A stretch of 64,000 nt of DNA from a virus (Duplodnaviria > Heunggongvirae > Uroviricota > Caudoviricetes): positions 64,001 to 128,000 of the IMG/VR virus record IMGVR_UViG_3300027749_005140. The stretch is one strand, 5' to 3'. Shown here one piece after another: positions 11,293 to 50,950 of this stretch (position 1 is the first letter of the stretch; the number at the start of each line of letters is the position of its first letter). Below the pieces are notes generated by a model. The model saw only the letters and a program-made list of their open reading frames with translations, ran no database searches and had not been told where the DNA came from. The translations under genes were made by a program, and so were the position numbers.

Positions 11293-11320
11293 AAAAAGAC
11301 TCCAATTGGAGTCTTTTTCT
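11291..11320. terminator. Bidirectional terminator
   Basis: Perfect palindrome AGAAAAAGACTCC-aatt-GGAGTCTTTTTCT between convergent genes. Confidence 0.85.
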
Positions 11321-17638: not shown

Positions 17639-17655
17639 TACTCTTCTTTTTTTTT
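17623..17655. terminator. Bidirectional terminator
   Basis: AAAAAAAGAAGAGT-aat-ACTCTTCTTTTTTT between convergent genes. Confidence 0.75.
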
Positions 17656-18172: not shown

Positions 18173-18250
18173 AATAATTTATTTTTTTTTATAATGTATA
18201 TATTAAAACAAAAACATCATTTTACATATAAAAAGAAAATAATTTTGTAT

Positions 18251-20224
18251 ATGCAAAAAGACTCAAAAATATTTATAGCCGGTCACAAAGGTATGGTCGG
18301 TTCTGCTATACATAGAAAACTAAAAGAACTAGGTTATACTAATATAATTACTTCAACAAAATCAGATCTAAACTTAAAAAATCAAGAAGATGTTAGATTT
18401 TTTTTCTGGCATCATTCTTTTGAATATGTTTTCTTATGTGCTGCCAAAGTTGGTGGTATAAAAGCTAATTCAGACTTTAAAGCAGACTTTATCTATGATA
18501 ATATAATGATACAATCTAATATTATTCATTCCGCTAAACATTTTGGAGTTAAAAAACTTCTTTTCTTAGGTTCATCTTGTATTTATCCCAAGTTATGTCA
18601 ACAACCAATCAAAGAAGAATACTTACTTACTGGTTCATTAGAACCAACCAACGATTCGTATGCTATAGCTAAGATTGCTGGTATTAAAATGTGTCAAAGT
18701 TTTAATGAACAGTATGGTACTAATTTTATTTCAGTTATGCCAACAAATCTTTATGGTCAATGCTTTTCACACGATACTGATGTATTAACACCTAAAGGTA
18801 TCAAAAATATTAAAGACATTAAAATAGGTGATGAAATTTATACATTGAATCCAACATCACACAATGTTGAGATAGAAAAAGTTATTGCAACACAAACTAC
18901 AAAAACTAATGAATTTTTTAACTTCAAATCCAGAGGATGTGATTTTAGAGTAACACCTGATCATAAAATCTATTATAAAACATCAACAAAATATGTTAAA
19001 AGAGAGGCAGAAATATTCAGAAATATAGCAGGTAAAGAATATGGTCAAATAACATTAGCACATCATAATATTATAGAAAATAATAAGATGTATCAATTTG
19101 ATTTGAAAAAATATAAAGATGATAAACACATATTACGATATGATAACTATATGAAAGATGGAAAACATAGTAATTATAAATATTATCCAACCGAATATGA
19201 TCTATTGGATATTTGTGAATTTATAGGTTGGTATGTATCAGAAGGTTCAATATTAGATAATAAAAAAACAAAATATGATAATTTAGATTGTGGTCAGATA
19301 AGAATATCGCAACACAAATTCATAAATCCTGAAAATTATAGTGAAATAGACAATTTATTAACACGTATGGGAATATCATATGGGAAAGATAATTTTGCAT
19401 TTTACTTCACATCAAGAGCATTAAAAACTTTTATTAGAGAAGAAATTGGAGTAGGTTCTAATAATAAAAAAATACCTAATTTTATATATGAGTTGTCATC
19501 AGAATATAGATTAAAAGTTTTTAAATCTTTAATGAAAGGAGATGGTAATAAAAGTGGATTTAGATATAATACAAAGTCAATTCAACTTAGAGATGATTTT
19601 GTTTTATTGGCATTTTCACTAGGTATAAAAACATCATATTCCTTTAGTGGAGTCTGGAGAATTAACATAAGAAATATAAGTGAGAAAGTAACAGTTAAAT
19701 ATAAAAATATAAACATAGAAAATATAAATAATGAAGCAGTCTATTGTGTAACTACTGAGAAAAATCATATAATATATGCCGGTAGAAATGGTAAATTTAA
19801 TTGGATAGGCCAATGTGATAACTATGATTTGAATAACTCACACGTACTTCCTGCAATGATTAGAAAGTTTCACGAAGCTAAAATCAATAATTTACCACAC
19901 GTAGAAATATGGGGTGACGGTTCTCCAATGAGAGAGTTTTTATTTGTTGATGATCTAGCAGATGCTTGTTTACATCTAATGGAAAATTACAATGATTCTG
20001 AAATAGTAAACATTGGTACTGGTGAAGATATAACAATTAAAGATCTAGCTTACTTAGTAAAAGAAGTAGTTGGATTTAAAGGTAATATACTTTTTAATTC
20101 ACAAATGCCTAATGGAACACCTAGAAAACTATTAGATGTTTCCAAACTTACAAACTTAGGATGGCAATATAAAATATCTCTTAAAGAAGGTATAGAAAAA
20201 ACATATGTAGATTATGTCAAATAA
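18251..20224 (+). CDS. fcl: GDP-L-fucose synthase interrupted by an intein
   Basis: [39 protein letters not shown]|...|[29 protein letters not shown]; about 306 aa after intein removal. Confidence 0.92.
18761..19813 (+). mobile_element. LAGLIDADG-containing intein (351 aa) ending in Gln
   Basis: Begins CFSHDTDV; VTPDHKIY block B; [10 protein letters not shown] and LMKGDGN LAGLIDADG blocks; [10 protein letters not shown] block F; ends WIGQ followed by extein Cys. Confidence 0.9.
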
Positions 20225-21260
20225 AAAAGTCGCACTCCTAACGGGGATAACGGGAATGGATGGTTCTCACCTAGCAGAACTTCTTTTAGACAAAGGTTAT
20301 GAAGTACACGGTATTATTAGAAGATGTTCATCATTTAATACTGCCCGTATCGATCATATTTATGATAGAATAAAACTACACTATGGTGATCTAACTGATC
20401 CGTTAGTTATTTCAGATTTAGTGACGAAAATACAACCAGATGAAGTTTATAACTTAGGTGCTCAGTCACACGTTAGAGTTTCATTTGAGATACCTTATTA
20501 TACCGCACAAGTTGATGGTTTAGGTACATTAGTAATATTAGAGGCCGTAAAAAACCACTGTCCTAATGCAAGAGTTTATCAGGCATCTACTTCTGAACTA
20601 TATGGTGGTATGTCTTATAATATGCCAGTAACCGGATACACAGAAGAATCAGTTATGCATCCACGTTCACCTTATGGTTGTGCGAAGATGTATGGTCTTT
20701 GGATAACAAAGAACTATAGAGAATCTTATGGAATGCATATTAGTAATGGAATACTTTTCAACCACGAAGGTGAAAGAAGAGGTGAGACATTTGTTACCAG
20801 AAAAGTAACGATGGCATTGGGAGTTATTAAAAACTATTTAGATCATGGTCAAAGTGATTTCCCTACATTAAAATTAGGTAACCTTTACTCTAAAAGAGAT
20901 TGGGGATATGCCAAAGATTATGTTTATGGTATGTGGCTAATGACACAACAAGACACTCCAGACGATTACGTTTTGGCAACTAATGAAACACATTCAATTA
21001 AAGAATTGGTCGACCTAGCGGCCTTAGAATGTAAAATGGAATTGAAATGGATTGGAGAAGGAATAAATGAGAAAGCTTATTTTGAAGATAATGTAATTGT
21101 AGAGATTGATGAGAGATATTACAGACCGGCAGAGGTTGATATACTTTTAGGAGACTATACAAAAGCAAAGGAAAAATTAGGTTGGGAACCAAAAGTTAAG
21201 TTTAATGACTTAGTTAAAATTATGATGAATCATGATATAAAAAGTCAACAAACTCCTTAA
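20214..21260 (+). CDS. gmd: GDP-mannose 4,6-dehydratase
   Basis: [62 protein letters not shown]-x-SKRDWG. Confidence 0.95.
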
Positions 21261-21952
21261 TGAAACTTATTATCGAATACTTTAAATCCACAAATCAAAA
21301 TCGTGATGTAGAATATAAATCTTGTATAAATGAGAATATTAAGAATACTTTAATTGAAAAGATATATATCTTCATATCAGATGATTCTATACTAGATTTA
21401 CAATCAGATAAAATTGAAATTATTAAAATAGATAATAGACCTTCATTTAAGTTTTTATTTGAATGGTGTAATACTAACCTACCAGATGATATTTGTATTG
21501 TTGCAAATACTGATATTTTCTTTGACTCAACTATAGAACACCTAAATAATACTGATCTTACTAATACATTTCTTGCTTTAACAAGATGGGATTTAGTACT
21601 CAAAGATAATCAATGGTTTGTTGATTTTTATAATAAATCATGTAATCAAATTGGACTAACGACTGGAATGTTTTCACAAGATTCTTGGATATTTAAAACA
21701 CCTATAAAAGTAGATGAAAGAAGCAACTTTCTAATGGGTAAACCAGGATGTGATAACAGAATTGTTCAAATCTATTTAGAGAATGATTATAATGTTAAAA
21801 ATCCAAGTATGCAGATAGTTAGTAAACACTTACATATTTCTAATCATAGAACTTATAATAATACAGATATGGTATTTGGTCCATATCTTTTGGTTGAACC
21901 AACCAATGATATAAATATCGATAGCCAAAAGAAAACAATACCACACTTTTAA
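21260..21952 (+). CDS. Putative GT-A-like glycosyltransferase or glycan-modifying protein
   Basis: IVANTDIFFD, ALTRWD, SQDSWIF, GKPGCDNR; lies in the glycan operon. Confidence 0.45.
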   Translation: MKLIIEYFKSTNQNRDVEYKSCINENIKNTLIEKIYIFISDDSILDLQSDKIEIIKIDNRPSFKFLFEWCNTNLPDDICIVANTDIFFDSTIEHLNNTDLTNTFLALTRWDLVLKDNQWFVDFYNKSCNQIGLTTGMFSQDSWIFKTPIKVDERSNFLMGKPGCDNRIVQIYLENDYNVKNPSMQIVSKHLHISNHRTYNNTDMVFGPYLLVEPTNDINIDSQKKTIPHF

Positions 21953-22785
21953 TGAGAGTAGATAAGAGATTTAATTCACAAGAAAGTAATGATGCGATTG
22001 CCAACTTAGTAAAAGAAAATAAAAGTTTTCTAATATCAAGAGTAGGATTAGGTGGAGAAACTGCTATATCTGCTTTAGTATTAGCAAATCAACAAATACC
22101 ACAACATGTTTATAATTGGTTCTATATAAATGCAGGGTTCTATGGATCAAAAAATCTTATAACCTATGCAAAGTATTACAAGTCTGCTTGTGAATCTTGT
22201 GACTTACACGCATATTGGAATTTTCAAGGATTTATCGAAATGGAAGACTTTCTAGTACCTGAAGATAAAACACTTATTGATGTAAGTGCATTAGAATCAT
22301 TTAGATTTGATAATCCTTGGACAGAACATCTAAAAGGTAAAAAGATACTTATTATAAATCCATTTAAAGAAACAATAGATAAACAATTGCTAGTTAAGGA
22401 TAAGATATGGGAAAATAAAAATATACTACCTGATGCAGAATATATTACATATAAGTCTGTTCAATCAATTGGTGGTCAAGGTCCAGATAAAGACTGGTAT
22501 GAATCATATGATAAAATGTGTAAAGATATATCAGAGATAGATTTTGATGTTGCTTTACTAGGTTGTGGTTCATACGGACTACCACTATGTGATTTTATTA
22601 AAAATAAATTGAATAAATCTACCGTTTATATTGGTGGTGGACTTCAATTATACTTTGGTATAAAAGGTAAAAGATGGGAAGGTAGTGAAGATATTACAAA
22701 ATTCTATAATGAATATTGGGTAAGACCAAATACAGAAGAAACACCGGCAACAAGTACAATGGTTGAGGGTGGTTGTTACTGGTAA
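21952..22785 (+). CDS. Putative GT-D-fold-like glycosyltransferase
   Basis: KKILIINPF, DFDVALLGCGSYGLPL, VYIGGGLQLYFGIKGKRW. Confidence 0.5.
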   Translation: MRVDKRFNSQESNDAIANLVKENKSFLISRVGLGGETAISALVLANQQIPQHVYNWFYINAGFYGSKNLITYAKYYKSACESCDLHAYWNFQGFIEMEDFLVPEDKTLIDVSALESFRFDNPWTEHLKGKKILIINPFKETIDKQLLVKDKIWENKNILPDAEYITYKSVQSIGGQGPDKDWYESYDKMCKDISEIDFDVALLGCGSYGLPLCDFIKNKLNKSTVYIGGGLQLYFGIKGKRWEGSEDITKFYNEYWVRPNTEETPATSTMVEGGCYW

Positions 22786-22799
22786 AAAATAAAATTAAA

Positions 22800-23708
22800 A
22801 TGGAAAAATTATTAATAAGTTATTGTTTCTTTACACCAAAGAACTTACATAAAGAAATGAGATTTTGGGATCTCTATAATACATATGATAGATATTGGTA
22901 TAATATACCTGCTTTAATGGCAGTTAATAGTATTATATACCCGAATGCAAAAATAAAAATACACCTCTCGGAGGAAATAAAATCAAACCCATTATTCGAG
23001 ATTTTGTATAAAATATCTGAAAATATGAGTAATGTTGAATTGGTATTTATGCCTTATGAATATACCAACACTGAACCAACTATGTGGAGATATAAACCTT
23101 TATTCGATAAAGAATCTGATGTTGTTTTATGTAGAGACATAGATTCACTACCCAATGAAGATGAGATAAAATCAACATACTACTTTTTACAAAATAAAAA
23201 TTATAAAGTACATACTTTAAGAACACATACAAATCATGGTAGTGGTGCAACTATAATACTAGCAGGTCTTTGTGGATATAGACCATCAGAAATATACTTT
23301 ATAAAGGATATTACATTTGATGCTTACTATAATCATTTTAAATCAATGAGTTGGGGGTTAGATCAAAACTCACTAATAAATCTATTCGTAAGAGATCAAC
23401 CTTGGACAGGTGAAAATTTTCTAGACTCACCAATTAGTACCGAATATCATAAAGTACCAAATGCCTTAATAAACTGTAAATCATTCAATCAAGATTTCTA
23501 TAGAACCAATGTTGATATTTCACAAATAGATAATCGTATTTTAGAAATACTAAATGATGAAACTAAATGGGCAGGTGAACCAACAAATTTAAGAGGTGAT
23601 AAACTAGTTAAATTATTAAGTTTAGATATACCAGAACTTAAAAAAATGAAGGAGATAATAGAATCTTGTTCAGAAGATATAAAAAACTTTTACTTAGGTA
23701 ATGTATAA
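22800..23708 (+). CDS. Putative glycosyltransferase (RDxDS motif)
   Basis: MWRYKPLFD, VVLCRDIDS, ILAGLCG, DQ-x-x-L; start moved to ATG 22800. Confidence 0.5.
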   Translation: MEKLLISYCFFTPKNLHKEMRFWDLYNTYDRYWYNIPALMAVNSIIYPNAKIKIHLSEEIKSNPLFEILYKISENMSNVELVFMPYEYTNTEPTMWRYKPLFDKESDVVLCRDIDSLPNEDEIKSTYYFLQNKNYKVHTLRTHTNHGSGATIILAGLCGYRPSEIYFIKDITFDAYYNHFKSMSWGLDQNSLINLFVRDQPWTGENFLDSPISTEYHKVPNALINCKSFNQDFYRTNVDISQIDNRILEILNDETKWAGEPTNLRGDKLVKLLSLDIPELKKMKEIIESCSEDIKNFYLGNV

Positions 23709-24522
23709 CTTTATTGATGGTGACTTCTTTGAATCACTTGCTGATTTTACCTTTGGTGATATGTACTCACAAAATATGACTGAACCAAGTTATGATTTAC
23801 TAAACTCTATTTTTCAGAAATATGATAAACCTATTCTATTCATTGAAACACATAGACTAGGTAATTTGTTTAGAGAACTAGTAAAGTTTTCTAATAATGT
23901 GATAATTATTGCACATAATTCAGATGCAACTTTTGGTATTGAATTATTTAATAATCTTCCAAAAAATGTTGAGAAGATATGGTGTCAGAATTATAACTAT
24001 ATTGAAACTGATAGAATTAAAAGTTTACCTATTGGTTTAGAAAGAGTTAGATGGTTTCCAGAACAAAAGAAACAAGAAGTACTTTATCAATCAATAGGTG
24101 ATAATACTAAATCTGATTTAGTTTATATGAACTTTAACCCAGGTACTAATCCTCAGAGACAAACTATATTTGATCAATTAAATAACAAATCATTTATTAC
24201 ACAGAAAATGGTTGGAAATGGTGGAGATTATAATACTTATATAAATGATATAAAATCACATAAATATGTTATATCACCACCGGGAAATGGTATAGATTGC
24301 CATAGAAACTGGGAGGCAATTTATTTGGGTTGTATTCCTATAGTTTTAGATAGTTATTTTAATAGAAATGTGTATGAAAAATTACCAGTTTTAATTGTTA
24401 AAGATTATGAGCTAAATGAGAAAGAATTACTTGATAGGTATGATGAAATCATAAACAAAAATCAAAACATTGATATAATAAATAAAAAATATTGGGAGAA
24501 TGAAATTAGATCTAATAAATAA
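23701..24522 (+). CDS. Exostosin-like (GT47) glycosyltransferase
   Basis: KYVISPPGNGIDCHRNWEAIYLGCIPIV. Confidence 0.7.
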   Translation: MYNFIDGDFFESLADFTFGDMYSQNMTEPSYDLLNSIFQKYDKPILFIETHRLGNLFRELVKFSNNVIIIAHNSDATFGIELFNNLPKNVEKIWCQNYNYIETDRIKSLPIGLERVRWFPEQKKQEVLYQSIGDNTKSDLVYMNFNPGTNPQRQTIFDQLNNKSFITQKMVGNGGDYNTYINDIKSHKYVISPPGNGIDCHRNWEAIYLGCIPIVLDSYFNRNVYEKLPVLIVKDYELNEKELLDRYDEIINKNQNIDIINKKYWENEIRSNK

Positions 24523-25141
24523 AATATATGTTTGCCATTACACTAAACTAACGGAAAGAGTTGTTCCTTTAAAAGAGCAACTATCTAAATATAACCTAGA
24601 TACTGATTGGATTTTATCAAATGATAAAGAAGACCTAAATATTGAACTATTAAAACAAGAATTTATAAATATTGATAAGCATTTTCAACTAGATGGTCAT
24701 TATAGAAAATTAAGACTAAGTGAACTTTCACTTTTACTTAAACATTATGATATTTGGCTAGATATGAAGAATAATAATATTCAGAATGCACTTATCTTAG
24801 AAGATGATGCTTTATTATCAGATAACTTTGTTATACTATTTAATGAATATACTAAGGATATAAATAAAGATTATGATATAGTATGGGTTGGTAGTTGTTG
24901 TGATTTACATGCAAATGGTTCTTCTAATTTAATTAGAACAAATAGTAGTAGATGTACACACGGATATATGTTAAACTTAAAAGTTGTTGATACATTACTC
25001 GAAAATGTTAAGTATAATAACTACCCTGTAGATTTCTACTTCAACTATATTATAAATAAATTTAATGTAAATAACTACTGGATGGAACCAGACCTAATTT
25101 CACAAAATCCAAAATTCGAGACATCAATACAGAATGGATAA
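24500..25141 (+). CDS. GT25-family glycosyltransferase
   Basis: ELSLLLKH, ALILEDDA, CTHGYML, PVDFY. Confidence 0.75.
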   Translation: MKLDLINKIYVCHYTKLTERVVPLKEQLSKYNLDTDWILSNDKEDLNIELLKQEFINIDKHFQLDGHYRKLRLSELSLLLKHYDIWLDMKNNNIQNALILEDDALLSDNFVILFNEYTKDINKDYDIVWVGSCCDLHANGSSNLIRTNSSRCTHGYMLNLKVVDTLLENVKYNNYPVDFYFNYIINKFNVNNYWMEPDLISQNPKFETSIQNG

Positions 25142-26015
25142 AATAAAAGTAAAAGTTGTCTGTGATTGGGATAGTGACTACAATATCTCTAATATATTTA
25201 GAGATATATGGTACAATGATGACGTATCTAAAAGTATAGACCTTGTTTATAATGATGTATATGATTATTTAATAATATTAAATAAATATAAACATCAAAT
25301 AAAATGTCCTATTGAGAATCGTATAGTATTTATAATGGAACCTTCTTGGAGTCAAAATTGGGATAGAAACTTAGGATCTTATGTTTCAAAGATATACTCA
25401 CATATAAACTTTGATCAAAAATGTCAATTTAACCCATCGGTTATGACTACACACCTTTTTCCTAAACCGATAAATATTGGTGAGATACAGTATGTTGAGA
25501 ATAACATAAATACCATATCTAATACTAAATATGATAAAACTAAGAAGTTATCGATAGTAGTATCCAACATTAGTGGTTACAAAAGATATAACTTTGTACA
25601 AAATTTATTAAATAGTGATTTAGAGTTTGATATGTATGGTAGAGGTTGGAACATAACTGATAGAAGATATAAAGGATATGTTGAAAACAAATTAGATGCC
25701 ATAAAAGATTATCAATTCTCTATATGTATGGAAAATTCTGTTGAAGATGGTTATATAACCGAAAAATTCATAGACTCAATTCTGTGTGAAACAGTACCTA
25801 TTTATTATGGCTCAAAGGGTGTAGAAAATTGGTATGGTGATTGCTTTGAATATATAGATGTTGAAAATGATTCTATTGATAAAATTAAAGAAATAGTAAG
25901 TGGTGACAAAGTTTATAACTTTGATAAAGCAAAAGATTTCTATTTGAATATAAATAATCCATTTAATATTCTACTAAAATATATAAATAATAATGACACT
26001 AACAATAACACATAA
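25134..26015 (+). CDS. GT10-like alpha-1,3/4-fucosyltransferase
   Basis: KLDAIKDYQFSICMENS-x2-DGYITEKF-x-D...TVPIYYG is the GT10 signature. Confidence 0.8.
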   Translation: MDKIKVKVVCDWDSDYNISNIFRDIWYNDDVSKSIDLVYNDVYDYLIILNKYKHQIKCPIENRIVFIMEPSWSQNWDRNLGSYVSKIYSHINFDQKCQFNPSVMTTHLFPKPINIGEIQYVENNINTISNTKYDKTKKLSIVVSNISGYKRYNFVQNLLNSDLEFDMYGRGWNITDRRYKGYVENKLDAIKDYQFSICMENSVEDGYITEKFIDSILCETVPIYYGSKGVENWYGDCFEYIDVENDSIDKIKEIVSGDKVYNFDKAKDFYLNINNPFNILLKYINNNDTNNNT

Positions 26016-26796
26016 TGCGGGATTTTTCTCCTGTTGTACTATAAGACTTATAGAAATAGTAAATTTCTTTAACAAAAATAAAAATCTACCTACTATTGTT
26101 GACTCTTCAAGACAATTTGACTTTTATAAATCAAAACCAGAAGATTTATCTAAATTTTACTTCACCGAAAAAGAAAATAATATAGAATATAACATTGATA
26201 TAAAATTATCAAAAACTGATGATGAAGAACAATTCTCAGACTATAAACTATTAAATATTATCGATATAAATCCATTTGTTGAAAAGTACTTTAATTTATC
26301 TAATGAAGTAAACTCTATGGTATTAGAAATGGAACAAAAGTATAATATAGATTATGAAAATACTATTGCTGTATTTTATAGAGGTAATGATAAGGTTAAA
26401 GAAACTAATATTGGTTCATATGATGAATTTCTAAATAAAACACTTGAAATTTCTAATAGTAATCCAGAAAAGAAAATAATAATACAAACAGACGATCAAG
26501 GTTTTCTAAATTATTGTAAAGATAAGATAGATAATAGTAAAATTATAGTTTTTGATGAGATACCAAGTATAAACTCTAACCCTACTATGGCGGTACACCA
26601 TATTATTAGACCAGATGATAAAAAAATATTTGCTGCATACTTTCTAGCAATAACAAAAATCGTATCAAAATCTAATATATTGATAACACATTCTGGAAAT
26701 TGTGGTATGTGGGCAATATTACTTAGAGGTAATACTAATAATGTACATCAGTACTTAAATAGTATCTATAAACCACAATCAGATGGTTGGATATAA
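25993..26796 (+). CDS. GT11/GT23/NodZ-like fucosyltransferase
   Basis: AVFYRGNDK, IIQTDD, SKSNILITHSGNCGMWA resemble motifs I-III of this GT-B group. Confidence 0.65.
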   Translation: MTLTITHNAGFFSCCTIRLIEIVNFFNKNKNLPTIVDSSRQFDFYKSKPEDLSKFYFTEKENNIEYNIDIKLSKTDDEEQFSDYKLLNIIDINPFVEKYFNLSNEVNSMVLEMEQKYNIDYENTIAVFYRGNDKVKETNIGSYDEFLNKTLEISNSNPEKKIIIQTDDQGFLNYCKDKIDNSKIIVFDEIPSINSNPTMAVHHIIRPDDKKIFAAYFLAITKIVSKSNILITHSGNCGMWAILLRGNTNNVHQYLNSIYKPQSDGWI

Positions 26797-26812
26797 ACTA
26801 AATGTGAATTAA

Positions 26813-27628
26813 ATGAAAATAGCTTTATTACTAACTGGGCAACTTAGAACATTTGATCATGAACTTGTAAAAAAAAGTTGGAAAAAATTTATGGATGAAT
26901 ACGATGTAGAAATATTTGGTTGTTTCTGGTCTAATAGAGGCCAAAGTATTTTTTCAACTGAACAAAAATTAAATGATAATATAGATATTAATGAAAAAAT
27001 TGAAATAGATTATGTAAAAAGTATTCTTAATACAAATAATATAACTTTATTTGATTATGATGAATGGTTACAAAGAGATGAAGTTATTTCTTGGAAAAAT
27101 AAATATGATTTTGATACAAAATATTTTAACCCTTTATTTGCAAATTCTTTTCTTAGAGAAGAGTCGTATAAACTATTAGAATTAAGTAATAAACAATATA
27201 ATTCAGTTATTTCATCTCGACCAGATATTATTTTAACAAGAAAACCACCTGAATACCTATTTGAAGGTACAAATACTATTTGGCACCAAAGGTATCATTT
27301 TAAAGATATTATTTATAGTACTTTTTTTTCATCAAATCAAACAACTATGGAGAAAATTTGTAAATTTTATAGTAGTAATTTGATTGATGAATCAATTAAA
27401 TCACCTCATAATAGATATAACAATATATTAGAGCATTGTGGAGTAATGTATTCATACATAAAACTTTTGAATTTGGATGATAAATCTTATATAGGTACTC
27501 TTTTTGCAGAACCTTTTAGGACTACAGAGACCTTGAATATTGAAAATATAAGAGAGAGTATCAGACTAAATCAAAATAATCTAGGTATGGATTTTGATAA
27601 AAACTGGTTTCCACTTTTTGAAAATTAA
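26813..27628 (+). CDS. Glycan-locus protein, paralog 1 of the MK(I/V)A-x3-(S/T)G-x2-R...R(P/L)D family
   Basis: MKIALLLTGQLRTF, VISSRPD. Confidence 0.5.
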   Translation: MKIALLLTGQLRTFDHELVKKSWKKFMDEYDVEIFGCFWSNRGQSIFSTEQKLNDNIDINEKIEIDYVKSILNTNNITLFDYDEWLQRDEVISWKNKYDFDTKYFNPLFANSFLREESYKLLELSNKQYNSVISSRPDIILTRKPPEYLFEGTNTIWHQRYHFKDIIYSTFFSSNQTTMEKICKFYSSNLIDESIKSPHNRYNNILEHCGVMYSYIKLLNLDDKSYIGTLFAEPFRTTETLNIENIRESIRLNQNNLGMDFDKNWFPLFEN

Positions 27629-27643
27629 AAAAATAAAAATTAT

Positions 27644-28585
27644 ATGAAAATCGCTTTACATGATAACTCTCTGTCAATAAGAGGAACTACAGTTGCACTT
27701 TATGATTATGCAGAATATTTAACAAATAAATTCGGATACGAATGTATCATCTTGTATAACAAAGCCAGTAATAATAATGACTCTGATGTAATAAATAACA
27801 AATTCTCTAAATTTAAAGTTATTGGTTATCAGAATATTTCCGAAATAGATGGATATTTAATAGAAAATAAATGTGATTACTTTTTTGTTATTAAAAGTGG
27901 TCAGTTTGATGGAGTAATAAGTAATGTTTGTAAAAATATTATAATGGCAGTCTCTGCTAACATTAATAGGAATGATATTCACGGTGATAAATATTATGTT
28001 TGTTCTCCTTGGTTAAGTAAAATTACTGGTATTGACTATGTTCCACATATGATTAATCTACCAGATGTAGATTCTAATTTAAGAAATGAATTAGGAATAC
28101 CTTCAGATGCAATAGTTTTCGGAAGAAATGGTGGATATGAGACCTTTGACCTAATTTTTGTTAAAGATGTAATAAGAGATATACTATCAATTAAGGAAAA
28201 TTATTACTTTATTTTTCAAAATACCGAAAAATTTATTGAACATCCAAGAGTAATTTGGCTAAGTCCAAATCCTGACTTAGAATATAAGGTAAAGTTTATC
28301 AACACATGTGATGCTCATTTACACTCTCGATATGTAGGTGAGTCTTTTGGACTTACTTGTGGTGAATTCTCCATAAAAAATAAGCCAGTTATAACATGGG
28401 CCGGATCTTCCGAGAGAAATCATATTGATATATTAGGAGAAAAGGCATTATTATATAATAACTATGATGACTTAATGAGTCTATTATTGAAATTTCCTAT
28501 TATAGAGAAGAATAACTGGAATTGCTATGCTAATTTTTTACCAGACTTGGTAATTGATAGATTTAAAAAAATGTACTTAGAATAA
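27644..28585 (+). CDS. GT4-like (GT-B) glycosyltransferase
   Basis: RGTTVALYDYA; DAHLHSRYVGESFGLTCGEFS-x2-NKPVIT. Confidence 0.7.
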   Translation: MKIALHDNSLSIRGTTVALYDYAEYLTNKFGYECIILYNKASNNNDSDVINNKFSKFKVIGYQNISEIDGYLIENKCDYFFVIKSGQFDGVISNVCKNIIMAVSANINRNDIHGDKYYVCSPWLSKITGIDYVPHMINLPDVDSNLRNELGIPSDAIVFGRNGGYETFDLIFVKDVIRDILSIKENYYFIFQNTEKFIEHPRVIWLSPNPDLEYKVKFINTCDAHLHSRYVGESFGLTCGEFSIKNKPVITWAGSSERNHIDILGEKALLYNNYDDLMSLLLKFPIIEKNNWNCYANFLPDLVIDRFKKMYLE

Positions 28586-29388
28586 TGAATTATGATGACC
28601 TAAACTGTACAGTAGTGACTGCACTTTATAATATAAACAGAGAAAATTGGCCAGACTATAAAAGACCTTGGCAAGAATATTTAAACTATTTCAAAAATAC
28701 TTTATCACTTAGATGTAAGTTTGTTATTTATGTAGAACCAGATTTAGTTGATTTTGTAACTGAAGTAAGAAAGGAAGTTGATCAAGACTTGAAATACACA
28801 AAAATAGTTCAAATGGAATTTAATCAATTACCTAAGTTTTATCTTAAAGACAGAATAGATAATGTAATGTCTTCTACCGAATATAGAAACACATTAGTTG
28901 ACCCAAACCCACCAGAGTATAATAATAGTAATTATTCAGTTTTAATACTTTCTAAAATGTTTTTAGTTGAGGATGCAATTGATAAAAACTTTTATAATAC
29001 TGATTACTATATGTGGTTAGATGGTGGTATCAGACATACTAGTTTTAGAACAGAAGATAAGTTTAAATTCTATCCCAATCCACTAAAAATTAATGATATT
29101 AGTGGAATAAGAATTTTATGTAGATTTAGACCAGAGGAATCTGATTTAGACATAAAACACTTCTATAAATCTCACAAAAATAGATTTGGTGCTGGTGTTA
29201 TAGTTGGTAAAAAAGAGCATATAAAAGAATTTAACATTAAAATAAATGATATATTAGAAGAAGCTCTACTAAATAATTTAATTGATAGTGAACAATCACT
29301 TCATACTGTTTGTTATTTAAGAAACAAAGAGATGTTTGATCTAATATATAATCAAGATTGGTTCTATCATTTTGATTATTACCTATAA
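28585..29388 (+). CDS. HtrL/YibB (WlaTC)-like protein
   Basis: TVVTALYNI, SKMFLV-x2-AI-x2-N, YYMWLDGGI, DSEQ. Confidence 0.7.
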   Translation: MNYDDLNCTVVTALYNINRENWPDYKRPWQEYLNYFKNTLSLRCKFVIYVEPDLVDFVTEVRKEVDQDLKYTKIVQMEFNQLPKFYLKDRIDNVMSSTEYRNTLVDPNPPEYNNSNYSVLILSKMFLVEDAIDKNFYNTDYYMWLDGGIRHTSFRTEDKFKFYPNPLKINDISGIRILCRFRPEESDLDIKHFYKSHKNRFGAGVIVGKKEHIKEFNIKINDILEEALLNNLIDSEQSLHTVCYLRNKEMFDLIYNQDWFYHFDYYL

Positions 29389-29404
29389 AAAATAAATATA
29401 ACCT

Positions 29405-30079
29405 ATGAAAGTTGCTATTTGTATATCTGGTCATGTTAGATCACTTGATAAATGTATTCAAAACATAAGAGAAAATATATTCTACCCGATAAAAAGTGAA
29501 TTCGATACTGATATATTTCTATCAACATGGTCTACTGATAAAGACTTATCTTTTTTAAATGAAGATAGTGTTACTATTGAAGTTGAACCTACAATAGACT
29601 TTAGAATGAATTCAAAAAATTATCTAAAATATCCAAACCTATGTTGTCAAACAACTTGTGATAATGCTACATCTATGTGGTATAAAGTTAAAAAATCTTT
29701 TGATATGACAAATGATGAACATCAGATAATAGTTAGAATTAGACCTGATGTTATCTATGATACTAAAATAGATTTAAGTCAAATAATTGATTCTTATTCT
29801 AATGATAATATCTACATGTCAGAATCACCAGGCCGATACTTAGAAGTAACTAAGGGTATGTTAGATCCATTCATATTTGGTAATAGAAAGGTTATGTCAA
29901 ACCTAATGAATACTTATAACAATATTGAAGAATATGTTAAAGATGATAATATAGTACATTGTATTGAAGGATTTTTATACGAGAATACAAAAAATAATAA
30001 ATTAGAAAGAATTGATTTCAAATACTCTATTCTTAGAGAGAATGGAAATATAGATAAGTGTTATATTGAGAATAAATAA
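29405..30079 (+). CDS. Glycan-locus protein, paralog 2
   Basis: MKVAICISGHVRS, IVRIRPD. Confidence 0.5.
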   Translation: MKVAICISGHVRSLDKCIQNIRENIFYPIKSEFDTDIFLSTWSTDKDLSFLNEDSVTIEVEPTIDFRMNSKNYLKYPNLCCQTTCDNATSMWYKVKKSFDMTNDEHQIIVRIRPDVIYDTKIDLSQIIDSYSNDNIYMSESPGRYLEVTKGMLDPFIFGNRKVMSNLMNTYNNIEEYVKDDNIVHCIEGFLYENTKNNKLERIDFKYSILRENGNIDKCYIENK

Positions 30080-30089
30080 AAAAATAATT

Positions 30090-31190
30090 ATGGCTAGAAG
30101 CAAATGTGTTCTTTGTGAAGATAAAATAGAAAAAATTCACACAATAAATAATATACCATCATTTATGGGTGTTGTTGAATCAAATACCAATATAGTAAAG
30201 AATGATATGGTAATTGGAGAATGTTTAAATTGTGGACTATTACAAAATATCAATCTATTAGATCCAGACTTGATTTACTTAAACAACCATAATACACAAG
30301 TTGTTGGTGATATATGGAAAAACCATTATGTAGAATTATCAGATTTTATAAAAGAAAATTCAAATGGTAATGTAATTTTTGAAATTGGTGATCCGTCAGC
30401 AAAACTAGCCAAAAAACTAAAGGATAATTATAAAAAATGGATTATTATAGAACCAAATACTGATACCAAAAGTTTTGACAATGTTGAGATAATTAAGGGT
30501 TTCTTCCAAGGAATAAATCCTACAAATTATATTGTATCAACAATTGTTCACTCTCATGTTCTTGAACACATGTATGAGCCGGTAGAATTTCTAAAAGAGT
30601 GTAATAATATCTTACAAGATGGTGGAGTTACTATATTTTCAATACCTAATATAAAGTGGTTGATGAATAATAAAGCTCTACCGACAGGTATATTACATTT
30701 TGAACACACATATTATATCAATGAAGACAATATTGAATATTTTTTAAATAAATCCGGCTTTGAATTAAATGAAATAAAATATTATAAAAATCATTCCTTA
30801 TTCATCAAAGCAACAAAAAAAGAATTATCTAATATAAATATTACTAAATCTAATAATAAAGATGTTTTTTTAGACTTGGTTCATTATTATGATGATAAAA
30901 TTAAAAATATAAATAATAAATTGTTAAAAAAAGAATATTATTTATATTCTGCTCACATAAACTCACAGTATATGATAAATAATGGAATTAGTAATAATAT
31001 AAAGGCTTTACTAGATAAATCAGAATCTAAAATAGGTAAAAAGTTGTATGGATATGACTATGATATATTATCACCAGATTCAATTAGTAATGATGAGTCA
31101 CCAATTGTATTGGCATCACATATGGGTGTATATTATGAAGAAATAAAAAATAATCTTTTAGAGATAAATAAAAATGTGATTGTATTATGA
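30090..31190 (+). CDS. Class I SAM-dependent methyltransferase, NDP-sugar C-methyltransferase-like
   Basis: N-terminal CVLC...CLNCGLLQ Zn site, IFEIG, HSHVLEHMYEP, HFEHTYY. Confidence 0.7.
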   Translation: MARSKCVLCEDKIEKIHTINNIPSFMGVVESNTNIVKNDMVIGECLNCGLLQNINLLDPDLIYLNNHNTQVVGDIWKNHYVELSDFIKENSNGNVIFEIGDPSAKLAKKLKDNYKKWIIIEPNTDTKSFDNVEIIKGFFQGINPTNYIVSTIVHSHVLEHMYEPVEFLKECNNILQDGGVTIFSIPNIKWLMNNKALPTGILHFEHTYYINEDNIEYFLNKSGFELNEIKYYKNHSLFIKATKKELSNINITKSNNKDVFLDLVHYYDDKIKNINNKLLKKEYYLYSAHINSQYMINNGISNNIKALLDKSESKIGKKLYGYDYDILSPDSISNDESPIVLASHMGVYYEEIKNNLLEINKNVIVL

Positions 31191-31930
31191 GAGTAGCAGT
31201 TTGTTTATCAGGTCAATTGAGAAATTATAAAGAAACATTCCCATATTTTAAAAGTTTTATAATTGATGATCTATCACCAGATATATTTATTTATACAGAT
31301 AAGTATGATGTTGAAATAGAAAGATTATATAAACCAAAACATTTTGAATTTAACACTAATATTATAAATAATAACCTAGGCTATAAAAATACACATACGT
31401 CTACAAATGATATTAGCCTTTTAAATCAATTTTATAAAATTTCAGAGTGTAATAAATTAAAGTGTAAATATGAGGATGAAAATAAATTTAAGTATGATTT
31501 GGTAATTAGATGTAGACTTGATTCCTTCTTTATAAGAAAATTTAAAAAAGAAGAGCTTGAATTAAAAGATAATCAAGTTATGACACCTTGGGGTTGGGAT
31601 TTTAAATCTGTTTCAGAACATGCAGAGACTGATATTTTTGCATTAGGTAAATCAGAAGCAATGGATAAATACTCGTCAGTATTCGATAACTTAGATAAGT
31701 ATAAAAATGATATTATATTTCATCCAGAATCACTTATAGGTTATAATCTTTTTAGAGAAAATGTAGAAGTTAAAACATATGAGATTAACTTTCAATTTCA
31801 TTATCCTGAAATAGATGAGTTTGGTAATAATATTGATGTTAGTCAAAGAATACAAGAATTAAAAAACAATGGAGTTGAATATAGTCAAAATTTTTGGATG
31901 AATAAGATACTATATTATCCAATAAAATAA
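31187..31930 (+). CDS. Glycan-locus protein, paralog 3
   Basis: MRVAVCLSGQLRN, VIRCRLD, D-x-FALG, HPE. Confidence 0.5.
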   Translation: MRVAVCLSGQLRNYKETFPYFKSFIIDDLSPDIFIYTDKYDVEIERLYKPKHFEFNTNIINNNLGYKNTHTSTNDISLLNQFYKISECNKLKCKYEDENKFKYDLVIRCRLDSFFIRKFKKEELELKDNQVMTPWGWDFKSVSEHAETDIFALGKSEAMDKYSSVFDNLDKYKNDIIFHPESLIGYNLFRENVEVKTYEINFQFHYPEIDEFGNNIDVSQRIQELKNNGVEYSQNFWMNKILYYPIK

Positions 31931-31939
31931 GTAAATAAT

Positions 31940-32605
31940 ATGAAAATTGCAGTTTTGTTAACAGGGAATATAAGAACATGGTCAGAGAGTAACTTATTTG
32001 ATTTTATTGATGTTGATGTTGACTATTTTATATCTACAACAAATAAAAAATATAATTATCATCCTTTTATTTCAAATAAATTTGGATATAATCATATAAA
32101 TGATTTAATAATATCTAACGATGATATAAAAAACATCTTCAACAATATAGACTATAAAGAACTAATTATAAATGATGATGATGAAATAAACGATGATGAT
32201 TTCTCGGTAAATATGAGAAACATTGATAGTTGTTATCATCAATTTAATAGAATAAAAAAAATTTTATACTATATTGAAGAACATGAGAAAGATTATGGAA
32301 AGTATGACCTAATTATTAAGACCAGATTAGATTTAAAATACTATGGAAAGTTAAGTCAATATTTAAACGTTGATAATTATATTTATACTTCTTTTGGTGA
32401 TGGTGATCCAAATGATACAATATTAATTTCAAAAAGAGATGATTTTTTTAATATTATCAATAATATTATGCTAGAATTTTATAATCAAGCTGATCAAAAT
32501 AGTCATTTGAATCCACCACATGGCCTATTACAATCAATGTTAAATAGATTTCAACTTCAAAATAGACCTAATAATATTGCAGAAATTATAAGACTTAAAT
32601 TATAA
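31940..32605 (+). CDS. Glycan-locus protein, paralog 4
   Basis: MKIAVLLTGNIRT, IIKTRLD. Confidence 0.5.
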   Translation: MKIAVLLTGNIRTWSESNLFDFIDVDVDYFISTTNKKYNYHPFISNKFGYNHINDLIISNDDIKNIFNNIDYKELIINDDDEINDDDFSVNMRNIDSCYHQFNRIKKILYYIEEHEKDYGKYDLIIKTRLDLKYYGKLSQYLNVDNYIYTSFGDGDPNDTILISKRDDFFNIINNIMLEFYNQADQNSHLNPPHGLLQSMLNRFQLQNRPNNIAEIIRLKL

Positions 32606-32630
32606 TAAAAAGATAAAAAAATAATAGATT

Positions 32631-32951
32631 ATGAAGTTACACAAATTAGATAATATGTTTAAAGGTTGGTTTATAGGTGACTTTGAGCCAAGTTTATTTA
32701 ATGCAGACTTTGAAGTTGGTGTTAAAGAGTATAAATCCGGTGATAAAGAACAAAAACATTATCATAAACTGGCTAAAGAATTTACTGTGATAATATCGGG
32801 TAAGGTCAAGATGAATGATATTGAATATATAAAAGGAGATATAATACAAATTGACGAAAATGAATCTACGGATTTTGAGTGTATTGAAGATACAATAACT
32901 GTTGTTGTTAAAACAAAAAGTATAAAAAACGATAAATATATAAATGATTAA
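32631..32951 (+). CDS. Cupin-fold protein
   Basis: GWFIGDF, HYHK-x3-E-x-TVIISG. Confidence 0.7.
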   Translation: MKLHKLDNMFKGWFIGDFEPSLFNADFEVGVKEYKSGDKEQKHYHKLAKEFTVIISGKVKMNDIEYIKGDIIQIDENESTDFECIEDTITVVVKTKSIKNDKYIND

Positions 32952-34302
32952 ATTAGTAATATTTGACCTAGATGGGGTTTTAATAGACACAAGAGAAATA
33001 CACTATGAAGTTTTGAATAAATCCTTACTTAGTATTGATGAGAAATACACTATATCACATAAAGACCACTTGTCTAAGTTTGATGGATTATCAACAAATA
33101 GAAAATTAGAAATACTTTCTAATGAAAGAGGTTTACCTAAAGAGTTGCATAAAGTAATTTGGGAAAAGAAACAAGAATTAACTATAATAGAGTTAGAAGA
33201 TAAAATTAAAAGATCTGATAAATTGATTAATATAATTAATATATTAAAGTCAAAAGATATTAAGGTTTATGTTGCATCTAACTCTATTAAAAAAACCATA
33301 GAAATATCACTTGATAAATTAGGAATATCAGATTTAATAGACGGATTCTTATCCAATGAAGATGTTCTAAGTCCTAAACCACATCCTGAAATTTATATGA
33401 GATGTATGATAAATGAAAAGGTTATGCCAAGTGAAACTTTAATTTTAGAAGACTCATATATTGGCAGATTATCCGCAATCTCATCTGGTGCAAATATTTG
33501 CTCAGTGAATAACCCAGATGATGTCACAATTGAAAAAATAGAGAAGTCATTAAAGAATGAATTAAGAGATATTAAGTGGCATGATGATAAGATGAATATT
33601 CTAATTCCAATGGCTGGGGCGGGTAGTAGATTTTCAAGTGCAGGATACACTTTTCCAAAACCTTTAATTGAAGTTGATGGAATACCAATGATTCAAGTAG
33701 TGATTGATAATTTAAACATAGATGCGAATTTCATATATATTGTTAGAAAAGAACATTATGATAAATTTAACTTAAAATCATTTCTAAATGTAATAACACC
33801 GAATTGTAAAATTATAATGGTTGATGAAGTAACTGAAGGTGCTTGTTGTACTACTTTACTTGCAGAAGAATATATCAATAATAATAACTCACTACTAATT
33901 GCAAACTCAGATCAATTTATAGAATGGGTATCTGGTGAATATTATCACTCTATAAATACAAATGGTATTGATGGTAGTATTTTAACATTTGAAAATACAC
34001 ACCCTAAATGGAGTTATGTTAAGTGTGATGACTATGGTAATGTTGTTGAACTAAAAGAAAAGGAAGTAATAAGTAATAATGCAACAGTTGGAATTTATTA
34101 CTGGAAATCCGGTGCAGAATATGTAAAGTATTCTAAACAGATGATAAGTAAAAATATAAGAGTAAATAATGAATTCTATGTTGCACCAGTATATAATGAA
34201 GCAATTCAAGATGGTAAGATAATTAAAACACATAGAATAAAAAAGATGTGGGGGTTAGGTACACCAGAAGACTTAGAATACTACTTAAAAAACTATAAAT
34301 AA
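32944..34302 (+). CDS. HAD phosphatase fused to a nucleotidyltransferase (NTP_transferase)
   Basis: FDLDGVL, ASNS, KPHPE, LEDS; then IPMAGAGSRF...PKPLI, ANSDQ, EK-x-VIS, GIYYW, GLGTPEDL. Confidence 0.85.
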   Translation: MIKLVIFDLDGVLIDTREIHYEVLNKSLLSIDEKYTISHKDHLSKFDGLSTNRKLEILSNERGLPKELHKVIWEKKQELTIIELEDKIKRSDKLINIINILKSKDIKVYVASNSIKKTIEISLDKLGISDLIDGFLSNEDVLSPKPHPEIYMRCMINEKVMPSETLILEDSYIGRLSAISSGANICSVNNPDDVTIEKIEKSLKNELRDIKWHDDKMNILIPMAGAGSRFSSAGYTFPKPLIEVDGIPMIQVVIDNLNIDANFIYIVRKEHYDKFNLKSFLNVITPNCKIIMVDEVTEGACCTTLLAEEYINNNNSLLIANSDQFIEWVSGEYYHSINTNGIDGSILTFENTHPKWSYVKCDDYGNVVELKEKEVISNNATVGIYYWKSGAEYVKYSKQMISKNIRVNNEFYVAPVYNEAIQDGKIIKTHRIKKMWGLGTPEDLEYYLKNYK

Positions 34303-34303
34303 A

Positions 34304-34756
34304 ATGATTTATATAGCACATAGAGGAAATACCAATGGTAAGTTTGAATCTTATGAGAATGAACCAAATTATATTGATATGGCAATTAAAAAAGGATTTG
34401 ATGTAGAGATTGATATTTGGTGTATTGATAATCTAATATATCTTGGTCATGATAAACCACAATATGGTATAGACTTTGGATGGTTACGTGATAGAATAAC
34501 AAAATTGTGGATACATTGTAAAAATTTAGAAGCAATGATTCTATTAAAGAATTGTGGATATGATACTAATTATTTTTGGCATCAAGAAGATGACTTCACT
34601 ATTACTTCAATGGGTTATTTCTGGACATATCCTGGTAAAGAATTAAGTAGTAACTCGATTGCAGTGATGCCAGAGACTAAAGAATTTAAAGACATTGAAA
34701 AGGCATACGCAATATGTTCTGATTATGTAGAAAAAATAAAATTAGATAGTGAATAA
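34304..34756 (+). CDS. Glycerophosphodiester-phosphodiesterase-like mini TIM-barrel protein
   Basis: IAHRGN, EN, DVEIDIW, LGHD, WIHCKN, ICSDY. Confidence 0.7.
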   Translation: MIYIAHRGNTNGKFESYENEPNYIDMAIKKGFDVEIDIWCIDNLIYLGHDKPQYGIDFGWLRDRITKLWIHCKNLEAMILLKNCGYDTNYFWHQEDDFTITSMGYFWTYPGKELSSNSIAVMPETKEFKDIEKAYAICSDYVEKIKLDSE

Positions 34757-34796
34757 AAAAACAGGTGCAGGTGGTGAAATTTATGGGGATAACTAT

Positions 34797-34958
34797 ATGA
34801 ATCAACCTCTAGGAAAATCATATGGTATTGATATAGAAGCTAAAATGACACAAATGTTGGCTGACGAACTAACAAAATCAATTGATGCAGACATCATGAA
34901 AGAACTATTCAGTAAGAGAAATAAAAGAAAAATTAAGATTGAAAATCTTTTTAAATAA
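34797..34958 (+). CDS. Small protein carrying a gp23 major-capsid-like segment plus the C-terminal tag
   Basis: YGIDIEAKMTQMLADELTKSIDADIM; ends RKIKIENLFK; ATG start at 34797. Confidence 0.55.
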   Translation: MNQPLGKSYGIDIEAKMTQMLADELTKSIDADIMKELFSKRNKRKIKIENLFK

Positions 34959-35550: not shown

Positions 35551-35565
35551 CTGTTACTATTATTT

Positions 35566-47391: not shown

Positions 47392-47394
47392 ATT

Positions 47395-48675: not shown

Positions 48676-48680
48676 TTTTA

Positions 48681-49178: not shown

Positions 49179-49256
49179 ATTATTTTTAGTAATTTTATTA
49201 TTATATGTGTATTTAGTAAGAAGTTTTTCTTATCTTTGTCAAAATATAATTAAAAC

Positions 49257-49448: not shown

Positions 49449-49451
49449 AAT

Positions 49452-49664: not shown

Positions 49665-49665
49665 A

Positions 49666-50925: not shown

Positions 50926-50950
50926 AACCCACCGATTGGTGGGTTTTTTA
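50923..50950 (+). terminator. Rho-independent terminator
   Basis: AAAACCCACC-gatt-GGTGGGTTTTTT. Confidence 0.85.

Follow-up and report, generated by a model that had tools for sequence, protein, structure and literature searches.

Clusters of glycan genes are already known from phages. What is new in the locus described here is that it occupies a lineage-wide, modular and hypervariable slot in the largest known phages. The locus lies in a 64,000-nucleotide (nt) stretch of viral DNA (the window), positions 64001-128000 of the IMG/VR record IMGVR_UViG_3300027749_005140, a contig of 131,933 bp in all. Nineteen genes (g1-g19, window 18251-34756) form a cassette that appears to specify a glycan, and in the relatives of this phage the same slot holds other glycan genes.

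The closest described clusters are those of T4-like cyanomyoviruses (P-SSM2, S-SCSM1 ORF113-135 and Synechococcus phage B23 gp347-359), where, as here, genes for Gmd, Fcl, fucosyltransferases, a glycosyltransferase (GT) of family GT25 and unnamed transferases are co-directional and unaccompanied by an exporter, the functions being predicted from sequence in both cases. The cluster of B23 comprises 13 genes and is comparable to ours. That of S-SCSM1 includes Gmd, Fcl, three fucosyltransferases and five more transferases, and was annotated as a set of cell-wall genes with a proposed role in host-surface modification (PMC9602691). The cyanomyovirus clusters differ in being set in a Kyanoviridae backbone, whereas the genome here is of the Mahaphage type and about 0.6 Mb; moreover, one fixed slot beside a tail gene is used here, and swapping of modules is documented at the population level.

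Other viral systems come closer in what is known of the acceptor. In the part of PMC12619734 that cites Freeman et al. (2023), mycobacteriophages (Che8, Corndog) are the sole phages with proven virion glycosylation, the acceptors being capsid and tail-tube subunits. By analogy, their cassettes resemble the present one in that soluble, phage-encoded transferases, with or without a methyltransferase, lie near virion genes. They have no sugar-nucleotide pathway, whereas the window cassette has one for GDP-fucose, 19 genes, and an acceptor known only as a prediction. Mycobacteriophage glycosylation cassettes consist of two to four genes. Glycoproteins have also been detected in virions of the jumbo phage XacN1 (PMC5852040), which encodes a homolog of HtrL, a family represented in our cassette. 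Giant viruses possess clade-specific glycan clusters; those of chlorovirus PBCV-1 and the fibril clusters of the Megavirinae combine Gmd/GMER-type enzymes, many soluble transferases and methyltransferases with assembly in the cytoplasm, much as proposed here (PMC9614988, PMC10117803). These are viruses of eukaryotes, however, and neither the organisation of their clusters nor their acceptors (major capsid protein, fibrils) are homologous to anything shown below.

Bacterial loci provide further comparisons. Flagellin glycosylation islands and the lipooligosaccharide (LOS) loci of Campylobacter and Neisseria hold variable sets of soluble transferase and sugar-nucleotide genes between conserved flanks and have no dedicated exporter. 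The two leading explanations considered here are modelled on their architecture, but these loci are cellular, not viral, and the flagellin, heptosyltransferase or waa genes that flank them are not found beside our cassette. LOS-type outer-core loci resemble it in consisting only of soluble transferases and sugar-nucleotide genes, again with no exporter of their own. The O-antigen and capsule loci of the Wzx/Wzy or ABC-transporter type likewise have sugar-nucleotide genes, transferases and methyltransferases and are hypervariable between conserved flanks, but they have an initiating transferase, flippase, polymerase and exporter, which are missing from our contig and from the complete relatives. 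In recent surveys of huge phages, glycosyltransferases appear only as auxiliary or envelope-associated genes.

The window cassette is a block of 19 co-directional, almost gap-free open reading frames (ORFs), as a reading made from the sequence only (the sequence-only reading) had described it. At the 19 junctions from g1 to g20, a mini-ORF of the flank, 13 genes overlap the next, and the widest gap is 25 nt. The genes are as follows (L001, L006, L008 and L010 are relatives introduced further on).

18251-20224, + strand: g1, Fcl, GDP-L-fucose synthase, split by an intein (NCBIfam GDPFucSynFcl, 462.7 bits, and an intein N-terminal region; Pfam Epimerase and Hint)
20214-21260, + strand: g2, Gmd, GDP-mannose 4,6-dehydratase (Pfam GDP_Man_Dehyd, 423 bits, full length)
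21260-21952, + strand: g3, 230 amino acids (aa), no family; travels with g4-g6; 83-91% identical in L008 and L010
21952-22785, + strand: g4, candidate GT-D-like glycosyltransferase (Pfam GT-D-like, 24.9 bits against a cut-off of 27); 87-97% identical in L006, L008 and L010
22773-23708, + strand: g5, about 302-311 aa, no family; the likely start is the ATG at 22800; in L008 and L010 the gene is called at 302 aa and the identity is 94%
23701-24522, + strand: g6, candidate GT47 (exostosin)/RXYLT1-like transferase (Pfam Exostosin_GT47, 28.9 bits against a cut-off of 33.4)
24500-25141, + strand: g7, GT25 glycosyltransferase (Pfam Glyco_transf_25, 58.4 bits)
25134-26015, + strand: g8, GT10 fucosyltransferase (Pfam Glyco_transf_10, 54.1 bits)
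25993-26796, + strand: g9, candidate fucosyltransferase of the NodZ/FUT8/O-FucT/GT11 superfamily (Atlas feature search only, 0.93-0.97, mostly viral clusters; no Pfam match)
26813-27628, + strand: g10, DUF7796 paralog with a GT-A fold (profile from g15 homologs, E 1.6e-13)
27644-28585, + strand: g11, GT4/GT1-like (GT-B) candidate (Atlas feature search only, 0.96-0.99); 71% identical in L001
28585-29388, + strand: g12, HtrL/YibB-family protein (Pfam HtrL_YibB, 130.8 bits)
29405-30079, + strand: g13, DUF7796 paralog (same profile, E 7.5e-26)
30066-31190, + strand: g14, S-adenosylmethionine-dependent methyltransferase (Pfam Methyltransf_23, 31 bits)
31187-31930, + strand: g15, DUF7796, GT6-like GT-A fold (Pfam DUF7796, 34.9 bits; AlphaFold2 model, pLDDT 95)
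31940-32605, + strand: g16, DUF7796 paralog (same profile, E 9.9e-14)
32631-32951, + strand: g17, small cupin that may be a sugar epimerase or isomerase (Pfam Cupin_2, sub-threshold at 18 bits)
32944-34302, + strand: g18, fusion of a beta-phosphoglucomutase (beta-PGM)-like HAD domain with a nucleoside-diphosphate (NDP)-sugar pyrophosphorylase (Pfam HAD_2, 89 bits; NTP_transferase, 37 bits)
34304-34756, + strand: g19, 150 aa, no family; neighbour of g18

Scores above the Pfam or NCBIfam cut-off were obtained for Gmd, GT25, GT10, HtrL_YibB, the methyltransferase, DUF7796 and the HAD-NTP_transferase fusion. Fcl, at 463 bits, falls just below the 500-bit equivalog cut-off because the intein splits g1. 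The profiles thus agree with what the sequence-only reading had made of Gmd, Fcl, GT10, GT25, the HtrL-like protein and the methyltransferase. Its GT47-like (g6) and GT-D-like (g4) assignments found the families that it had named, but with scores below the cut-off, and its GT4-like (g11) and GT11/23-like (g9) proposals have leads from language-model similarity to protein clusters, in which the share of members carrying Glycos_transf_1 or NodZ/FUT8/O-FucT/GT11 ranges from a minority to a majority, and no support beyond these. A 495-aa protein of the L006 cassette is listed with the families of g6, unmarked, yet has no tblastn match to g6. Searches of PHROG, Pfam, NCBIfam and PDB sequences gave no match for g3, g5 and g19; membership of g3 and g5 in DUF7796 was ruled out by profile-profile comparison. 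Counted together, about eleven products look like glycosyltransferases: GT10, NodZ/GT11-like, GT25, GT47-like, GT-D-like, GT4-like, HtrL and four of DUF7796.

From these assignments a pathway can be proposed. Gmd and Fcl would convert GDP-mannose to GDP-L-fucose, and g18 has the domains to turn a sugar phosphate into a second NDP-sugar (its nearest solved structures are beta-PGM entries of the PDB at about 1e-12 and the pyrophosphorylase 4evw at 1e-15). The transferases would then act in sequence on an acceptor within reach of the cytoplasm, the product being a branched oligosaccharide with fucose and methyl groups. The methyltransferase g14 is distantly related (23% identical over 74% of its length) to a sugar C-methyltransferase in the cassette of the huge phage LR745206.1 (L004).

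The intein of g1 spans 351 aa (18761-19813); its first residue is Cys, its last two are Gly-Gln in place of His-Asn, and Cys follows at the +1 position. The first ATG of g1 is at 18194, and the start at 18251 gives the canonical N-terminus of Fcl and agrees with the L008 ortholog. That ortholog (18729-19649 of a 639,601-bp scaffold) lacks precisely the intein, and over the exteins the two are 90% identical; within the lineage, then, the intein is present in some phages and absent from others.

All 19 products appear to be soluble. No 19-residue Kyte-Doolittle window reaches 1.6 in any of them and no N-terminus resembles a signal peptide, as the sequence-only reading had judged by eye, and the 131,933-bp record is free of polytopic membrane ORFs. 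Among the slot variants of the relatives no multi-spanning membrane ORF was seen; L001, L005 and L010 have one ORF each with a single window just over the threshold. Export genes were sought with family profiles in the 132-kb record, the related 55-kb record L001 and two complete genomes, LR745206.1 and LR756502.1, control genomes having matched each family. None of these four contains an initiating phosphoglycosyl transferase (Bac_transf PF02397, or the WecA/MraY type PF00953), Wzx (Polysacc_synt PF01943), an ABC-2 permease (PF01061), a Wzy/O-antigen-ligase/PglL protein (Wzy_C PF04932) or STT3. The claim that Wzx, Wzy, an ABC exporter and an initiating transferase are missing therefore extends from the cassette to the contig and to both complete relatives. 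These results support a glycan-assembly pathway that resides in the phage, appears to be soluble throughout, supplies its own GDP-fucose and has no genes for export.

The two complete genomes matter here since the contig accounts for only about 20% of a genome that is roughly 0.6 Mb in size. The genes of the window are syntenic with those of LR745206.1 (634,780 bp) and LR756502.1 (642,428 bp), at 50-85% amino-acid identity, so that the backbone is that of huge phages and not of Kyanoviridae, the T4-like cyanophages. Both are among the largest phage genomes of Al-Shayeb et al. and belong to the Mahaphage clade, for which replication in Bacteroidetes is predicted (PMC7162821). The phage of the window is thus a member of the Mahaphage group, with predicted Bacteroidetes hosts. 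It is a freshwater phage, and its lineage has been recovered largely from lake metagenomes, in contigs of up to 648-656 kb.

A megablast search with the whole cassette against the phage collection returned only a 338-bp match at 72%, and relatives were therefore sought at the protein level. The conserved 199-aa flank of the slot led to seven distinct relatives that were fetched (L006, L008, L009, L010, L013, L015 and L017), three of them seen twice, the second contig coming from a different sample accession; with L001, LR745206.1 (L004) and LR756502.1 (L005), ten distinct relatives are available. The L006-L017 variants come from metagenome scaffolds, and several were viewed without their 5' parts. 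The slot lies between a ClpC-like gene and a tail-tube-fold gene, and its flanks in the window are as follows.

15533-17638, + strand: ClpC/ClpB-like AAA+ gene, the conserved upstream flank (phrog_4871, 751.9 bits; 68-69% identical in LR745206.1 and LR756502.1)
17623-17653, no strand: strong hairpin terminator behind the ClpC-like gene, bounding the slot on its upstream side
34749-34958, + strand: g20, mini-ORF of 69 aa, flank and not cargo (weak Pfam Gp23, major capsid, match; 42-89% identical in 10 of 10 relatives)
34951-35550, - strand: 199-aa protein with a tail-tube fold like that of T4 gp3/gp19, transcribed convergently with the cassette and bounding the slot downstream (AlphaFold2 model, pLDDT 90)
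35566-37452, - strand: conserved 628-aa protein, immediately upstream of the tube-fold gene, with the size and position of a sheath

In all ten relatives the slot holds a different glycan cassette, always exporter-free, and in none of them the gene set of the window. The flanks stay the same. The tube protein is 78-98% identical across the relatives and 95-98% within the close clade; between LR745206.1 and the window, identity is 68% for the ClpC-like protein and 78%, 66% and 82% for the minus-strand genes downstream. Corresponding hairpins lie behind the ClpC-like gene in L008, L004 and L005, and g20, which overlaps the stop of the convergent tube-fold gene, marks the 3' edge of every variant. 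Between the ClpC-like gene and the cassette of the window lie the terminator and a short divergent gene, and the cassette is a unit of its own behind that terminator.

The content ranges from partly shared to wholly different. L008 has g2-g9 in common with the window at 83-96%, besides its intein-free Fcl, and three other genes in place of g10-g19. L015 has g7-g9, then GT61, a PRK-family kinase, an aldolase and a large NTP transferase; L010 has g3-g6 and g18-g19; and L001 has g11-g12 and g15-g19. Fcl and Gmd are followed in L013 by FkbM, GT10, GT15, GT8 and GT2. L017 has UDP-galactopyranose mutase and GT11, and L009 has SIS, GHMP-kinase and CTP_transf_like genes, possibly a heptose-type pathway. 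The LR745206.1 cassette (L004 21765-36556, roughly 15 kb) has 18 genes: GT31-like, GT6, GT2, an FkbM methyltransferase, a CapD-like dehydratase, a deacetylase, a formyltransferase, the sugar C-methyltransferase, an RmlD-like reductase, an epimerase, GT11, another methyltransferase and five ORFs without a Pfam match. That of LR756502.1, with 24 genes in about 23.5 kb (L005 4751-28224), is different again. Among the cassettes compared, g10, g13 and g14 were seen only in the window. In sum, the slot is a lineage-wide, recombination-shuffled, modular and hypervariable glycan island, and its shuffled cassettes have the pattern that a surface structure under diversifying selection would leave. The sequence-only reading had missed the intein in Fcl and also these different cassettes at one slot, which are the most informative fact about the locus.

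The variability also bears on where the genes came from. Among deposited phage records, the nearest homologs of the cassette genes are those of T4-like cyanophages: Gmd is about 60% identical (P-SSM2, S-CAM7 and others), the g18 fusion 52-54% (B3/B23, S-PRM1, S-CAM9), g19 48%, the HtrL protein g12 31% and the DUF7796 proteins g13/g15 25%. Homologs of g12 at 23-31% identity are found in cyanophages and in phages of Xanthomonas, Stenotrophomonas and Campylobacter, several of them jumbo-sized. For g9 and g11, the two proteins looked up, the nearest Atlas clusters are overwhelmingly viral, mostly Uroviricota and Nucleocytoviricota. The cassette genes thus seem to be drawn from a viral pool. If, instead, a host capsule or O-antigen cluster had recently been captured and were passively carried, as the sequence-only reading had allowed in its refuting case, the same gene families would be expected, since bacterial polysaccharide loci contain them too. 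Neither the cassette nor the complete relatives, however, have Wzx, Wzy, an ABC exporter or a phosphoglycosyl transferase; the GC content of the cassette (26.7%, versus 29.5% in the rest of the contig) matches that of the phage; the clusters nearest g9 and g11 are viral and the homologs of g15 are unnamed metagenomic proteins; and the slot holds a glycan cassette in all ten relatives, which is therefore a long-standing phage feature. Passive capture of a host capsule cluster is essentially excluded.

The g18-g19 pair (window 32944-34756; L003 15001-16805) is adjacent here, in L001 and, with 48-54% identity, in the T4-like cyanophages B3/B23; in L010 one gene stands between g19 and the g18 homolog. 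The pair indicates exchange of modules between phages of Bacteroidota and phages of cyanobacteria.

What the glycan is built on is the harder question. We tentatively favour virion proteins over remodelling of host LOS or of a lipid carrier, at somewhat less than an even chance, because a tail gene always adjoins the slot, the cassette is large and seems to draw on viral genes, and its architecture is closely parallel to that of flagellin islands and of the proven viral systems. The transferases are soluble, phage-encoded and adjoin the tail-tube-fold gene in all relatives. The glycan would be built directly on phage virion proteins in the cytoplasm of the infected cell, most plausibly on surface-exposed tail or head proteins, and each phage strain would thereby get its own glycan coat. 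In a broader form, which we offer with some reserve, the largest known phages may wear strain-specific glycan coats: the slot would be the phage counterpart of an O-antigen or flagellin-glycosylation locus, its transferase modules recombining and some of them exchanged with T4-like cyanophages, and virion 'serotypes' would differ even among phages with 95-98% identical tail proteins.

Several observations weigh against decoration of the virion. The acceptor is a prediction, and the lineage is uncultured. The cassette is outside a structural operon: it is convergent with the tube gene and preceded by a chaperone gene, and the tail genes are soon followed by genes for replication (gp32, ribonucleotide reductase (RNR)). 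The promoter-like motif TTTAATATATA precedes the 628-aa gene but is absent upstream of the cassette, so that it gives no evidence of co-regulation with virion genes, and similarity among the 628-aa proteins does not follow similarity among the cassettes. Finally, an exporter-free locus of soluble transferases also looks like a lipooligosaccharide outer-core locus, and GT25 and HtrL are associated with the core of lipopolysaccharide (LPS). The sequence-only reading had deduced a cytoplasmic pathway for a fucosylated, methylated glycan from the lack of an exporter; the soluble, exporter-free pathway stands, but the missing exporter does not single out a virion acceptor, because LOS-type core extension needs only soluble transferases and the host's MsbA/Lpt.

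These points lead to the host envelope as the acceptor, which we consider possible but on balance doubtful. The transferases would extend the lipid A-core, or an O-glycan or O-antigen primer linked to undecaprenyl phosphate, at the inner face of the membrane, and host MsbA/Lpt or a host flippase and ligase would export the product; the infected cell would thereby acquire an altered surface that might, for example, block superinfection or re-adsorption of progeny. The missing genes fit equally well, as LOS outer-core loci can do without an initiating enzyme, flippase or polymerase of their own. GT25, HtrL, GT10/GT11-type fucosyltransferases and GT6-like enzymes belong to families that act on bacterial LOS and O-antigens; HtrL itself is found in the LPS-core region of E. 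coli, and the L009 variant has the possible heptose pathway. Homologous cyanophage clusters have been read as LPS or cell-wall genes acting on the host surface (PMC9602691), and many host-envelope proteins are reported in huge phages (PMC7162821; bioRxiv 10.64898/2026.10.24.761521); no such cyanophage cluster, however, is known from experiments to alter LPS. On the other side, at least 11 very different glycans would each have to be accepted by the export and ligation machinery of the host. Pfam scans of the 19 genes turned up no core-anchoring heptosyl or Kdo transferase, the GT9 and Kdo-transferase families not having been searched genome-wide. The constant neighbour of the slot is a tail gene and not an envelope gene. 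With 11 or more transferases the cassette is also far above the scale of the known phage modules for serotype conversion of host O-antigen, which have one to three genes.

Some other cytoplasmic acceptor, such as a non-structural protein of phage or host, a glycolipid, a small molecule or a free oligosaccharide, would be accessible to enzymes that are all soluble; the acceptor is not identifiable from the genes, and g3, g5 and g19 have no assignable function. The rapid shuffling of modules across relatives is most easily explained by an exposed structure, and we know of no precedent of such size for an acceptor of this kind, which makes it unlikely.

DNA is a still less probable acceptor. Phage transferases can hypermodify DNA with glycans, according to the statement in PMC12619734 that cites Pyle et al. 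(2024), and both soluble enzymes and diversifying selection would suit glycosylation of hydroxymethylated bases as a protection against restriction. The sole ThyA-family gene in each of the two complete relatives, on which this check rests (the genome of the window being about 20% sampled), nevertheless has the score of a bona fide thymidylate synthase (338 bits, against a cut-off of 108) and not a divergent hydroxymethylase. Eleven transferases and a fucose pathway far exceed the known DNA glycans, which have one to three sugars, and the families are those of classical glycoconjugates. We regard DNA hypermodification as very improbable.

Large exporter-free glycan clusters thus recur in big phages, both cyanophages and jumbo phages, where their roles are proposals. 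In a lineage abundant in lakes, conserved flanks with many alternative cassettes of interchangeable modules amount to a natural experiment. If virions are decorated, phages would vary along a new axis, that of glycan differences between strains, with possible effects on adsorption, on the stability of the particle, and on grazing or recognition; if it is the host that is decorated, phage-driven conversion of its surface would proceed on a large scale during lytic infection. In either case the cassettes are a catalogue of soluble, mostly uncharacterised transferases, with possible use in glycoengineering.

DUF7796, with its predicted GT6-like fold, is one example from that catalogue. The best Foldseek match of the g15 model in the PDB is BoGT6a of Bacteroides ovatus (4ayl; E 7e-8, TM 0.56-0.63), followed by human GTA/GTB, the A and B blood-group transferases, and by alpha-1,3-galactosyltransferase, at a sequence identity to the GT6 structures of 10-18%. 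Of 56 homologs of g15 collected, all unnamed metagenomic proteins, 40 were aligned with the window paralogs g10, g13 and g16 for the fold; a profile of the g15 homologs recognises these paralogs at E 1e-13 to 7e-26. The DUF7796 genes match only DUF7796 in Pfam and not Glyco_transf_6. The model and the profile together nevertheless predict that the cassette holds four GT6-like GT-A paralogs (g10, g13, g15 and g16).

True Pfam GT6 genes are found beside GT11 in the cassettes of LR745206.1 and LR756502.1, together with formyltransferase, deacetylase and C-methyltransferase genes for rare sugars. In bacteria, a GT6 and GT11 pair makes blood-group-like epitopes.

The downstream flank had been taken in the sequence-only reading for tail-fold and structural genes, and this holds for the first of the two. 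The model of the 199-aa protein matches T4 gp3 in Foldseek (7.5e-7), and also gp48/54/19 and the AFP/PVC tubes of contractile systems; the family profile finds gp3 in the PDB at 8e-5, and phrog_45 'tail tube' is matched by 25 of 65 diverse family members. The predicted fold thereby confirms a contractile-tail tube-family protein. Its 628-aa neighbour, which contains a loop rich in Gly, Asn and Ser, has no match in Pfam, PHROG, Atlas (best score 0.76) or a PDB profile search, the homologs listed for it are all close relatives, and its identity as the tail sheath could not be shown. Beyond the 628-aa gene come gp32, an exonuclease and RNR, so that the tail genes form an islet and do not belong to any long structural operon.

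The motif TTTAATATATA is 12-22-fold enriched in the intergenic upstream regions of the contig, and is spaced either 21-29 nt or exactly 5 nt ahead of start codons; the latter spacing suggests leaderless transcripts. Besides the 628-aa gene, it precedes tRNA leader modules and RNR (e.g., 37478(-), 18197(-), 5303(+), 7184(+), 42903(-) and 60723(-)). A plain sigma-70 promoter scan found 153 sites, versus 156 in shuffled sequence. Two further candidates were set aside: T4-late-like TATAAATA ahead of the cassette's opening gene in L008 and L005, as too frequent in DNA of 28% GC, and a Bacteroidetes-type TAnnTTTG word 4 nt before the Fcl start of the window, which reads TAATTTTC in L008.

The 199-aa and 628-aa genes (34951-37452) are handy markers for a very abundant lineage of huge phages: the tube-fold protein has 1876 database homologs, the best 120 of which are all at least 90% identical, and the 628-aa protein has 1491, the best 120 all at least 75% identical. 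Three paralogs on the contig, of 395, 409 and 633 aa (window 11319-13220; contig C1 5146-6333 and 50467-51696), all match a single gene of LR745206.1 (L002 ~21870-23165). The phage also has chaperone genes, namely the ClpC/ClpB-like AAA+ gene and a DnaK that is 85% identical to the DnaK of LR745206.1 (listed with 46321-52997).

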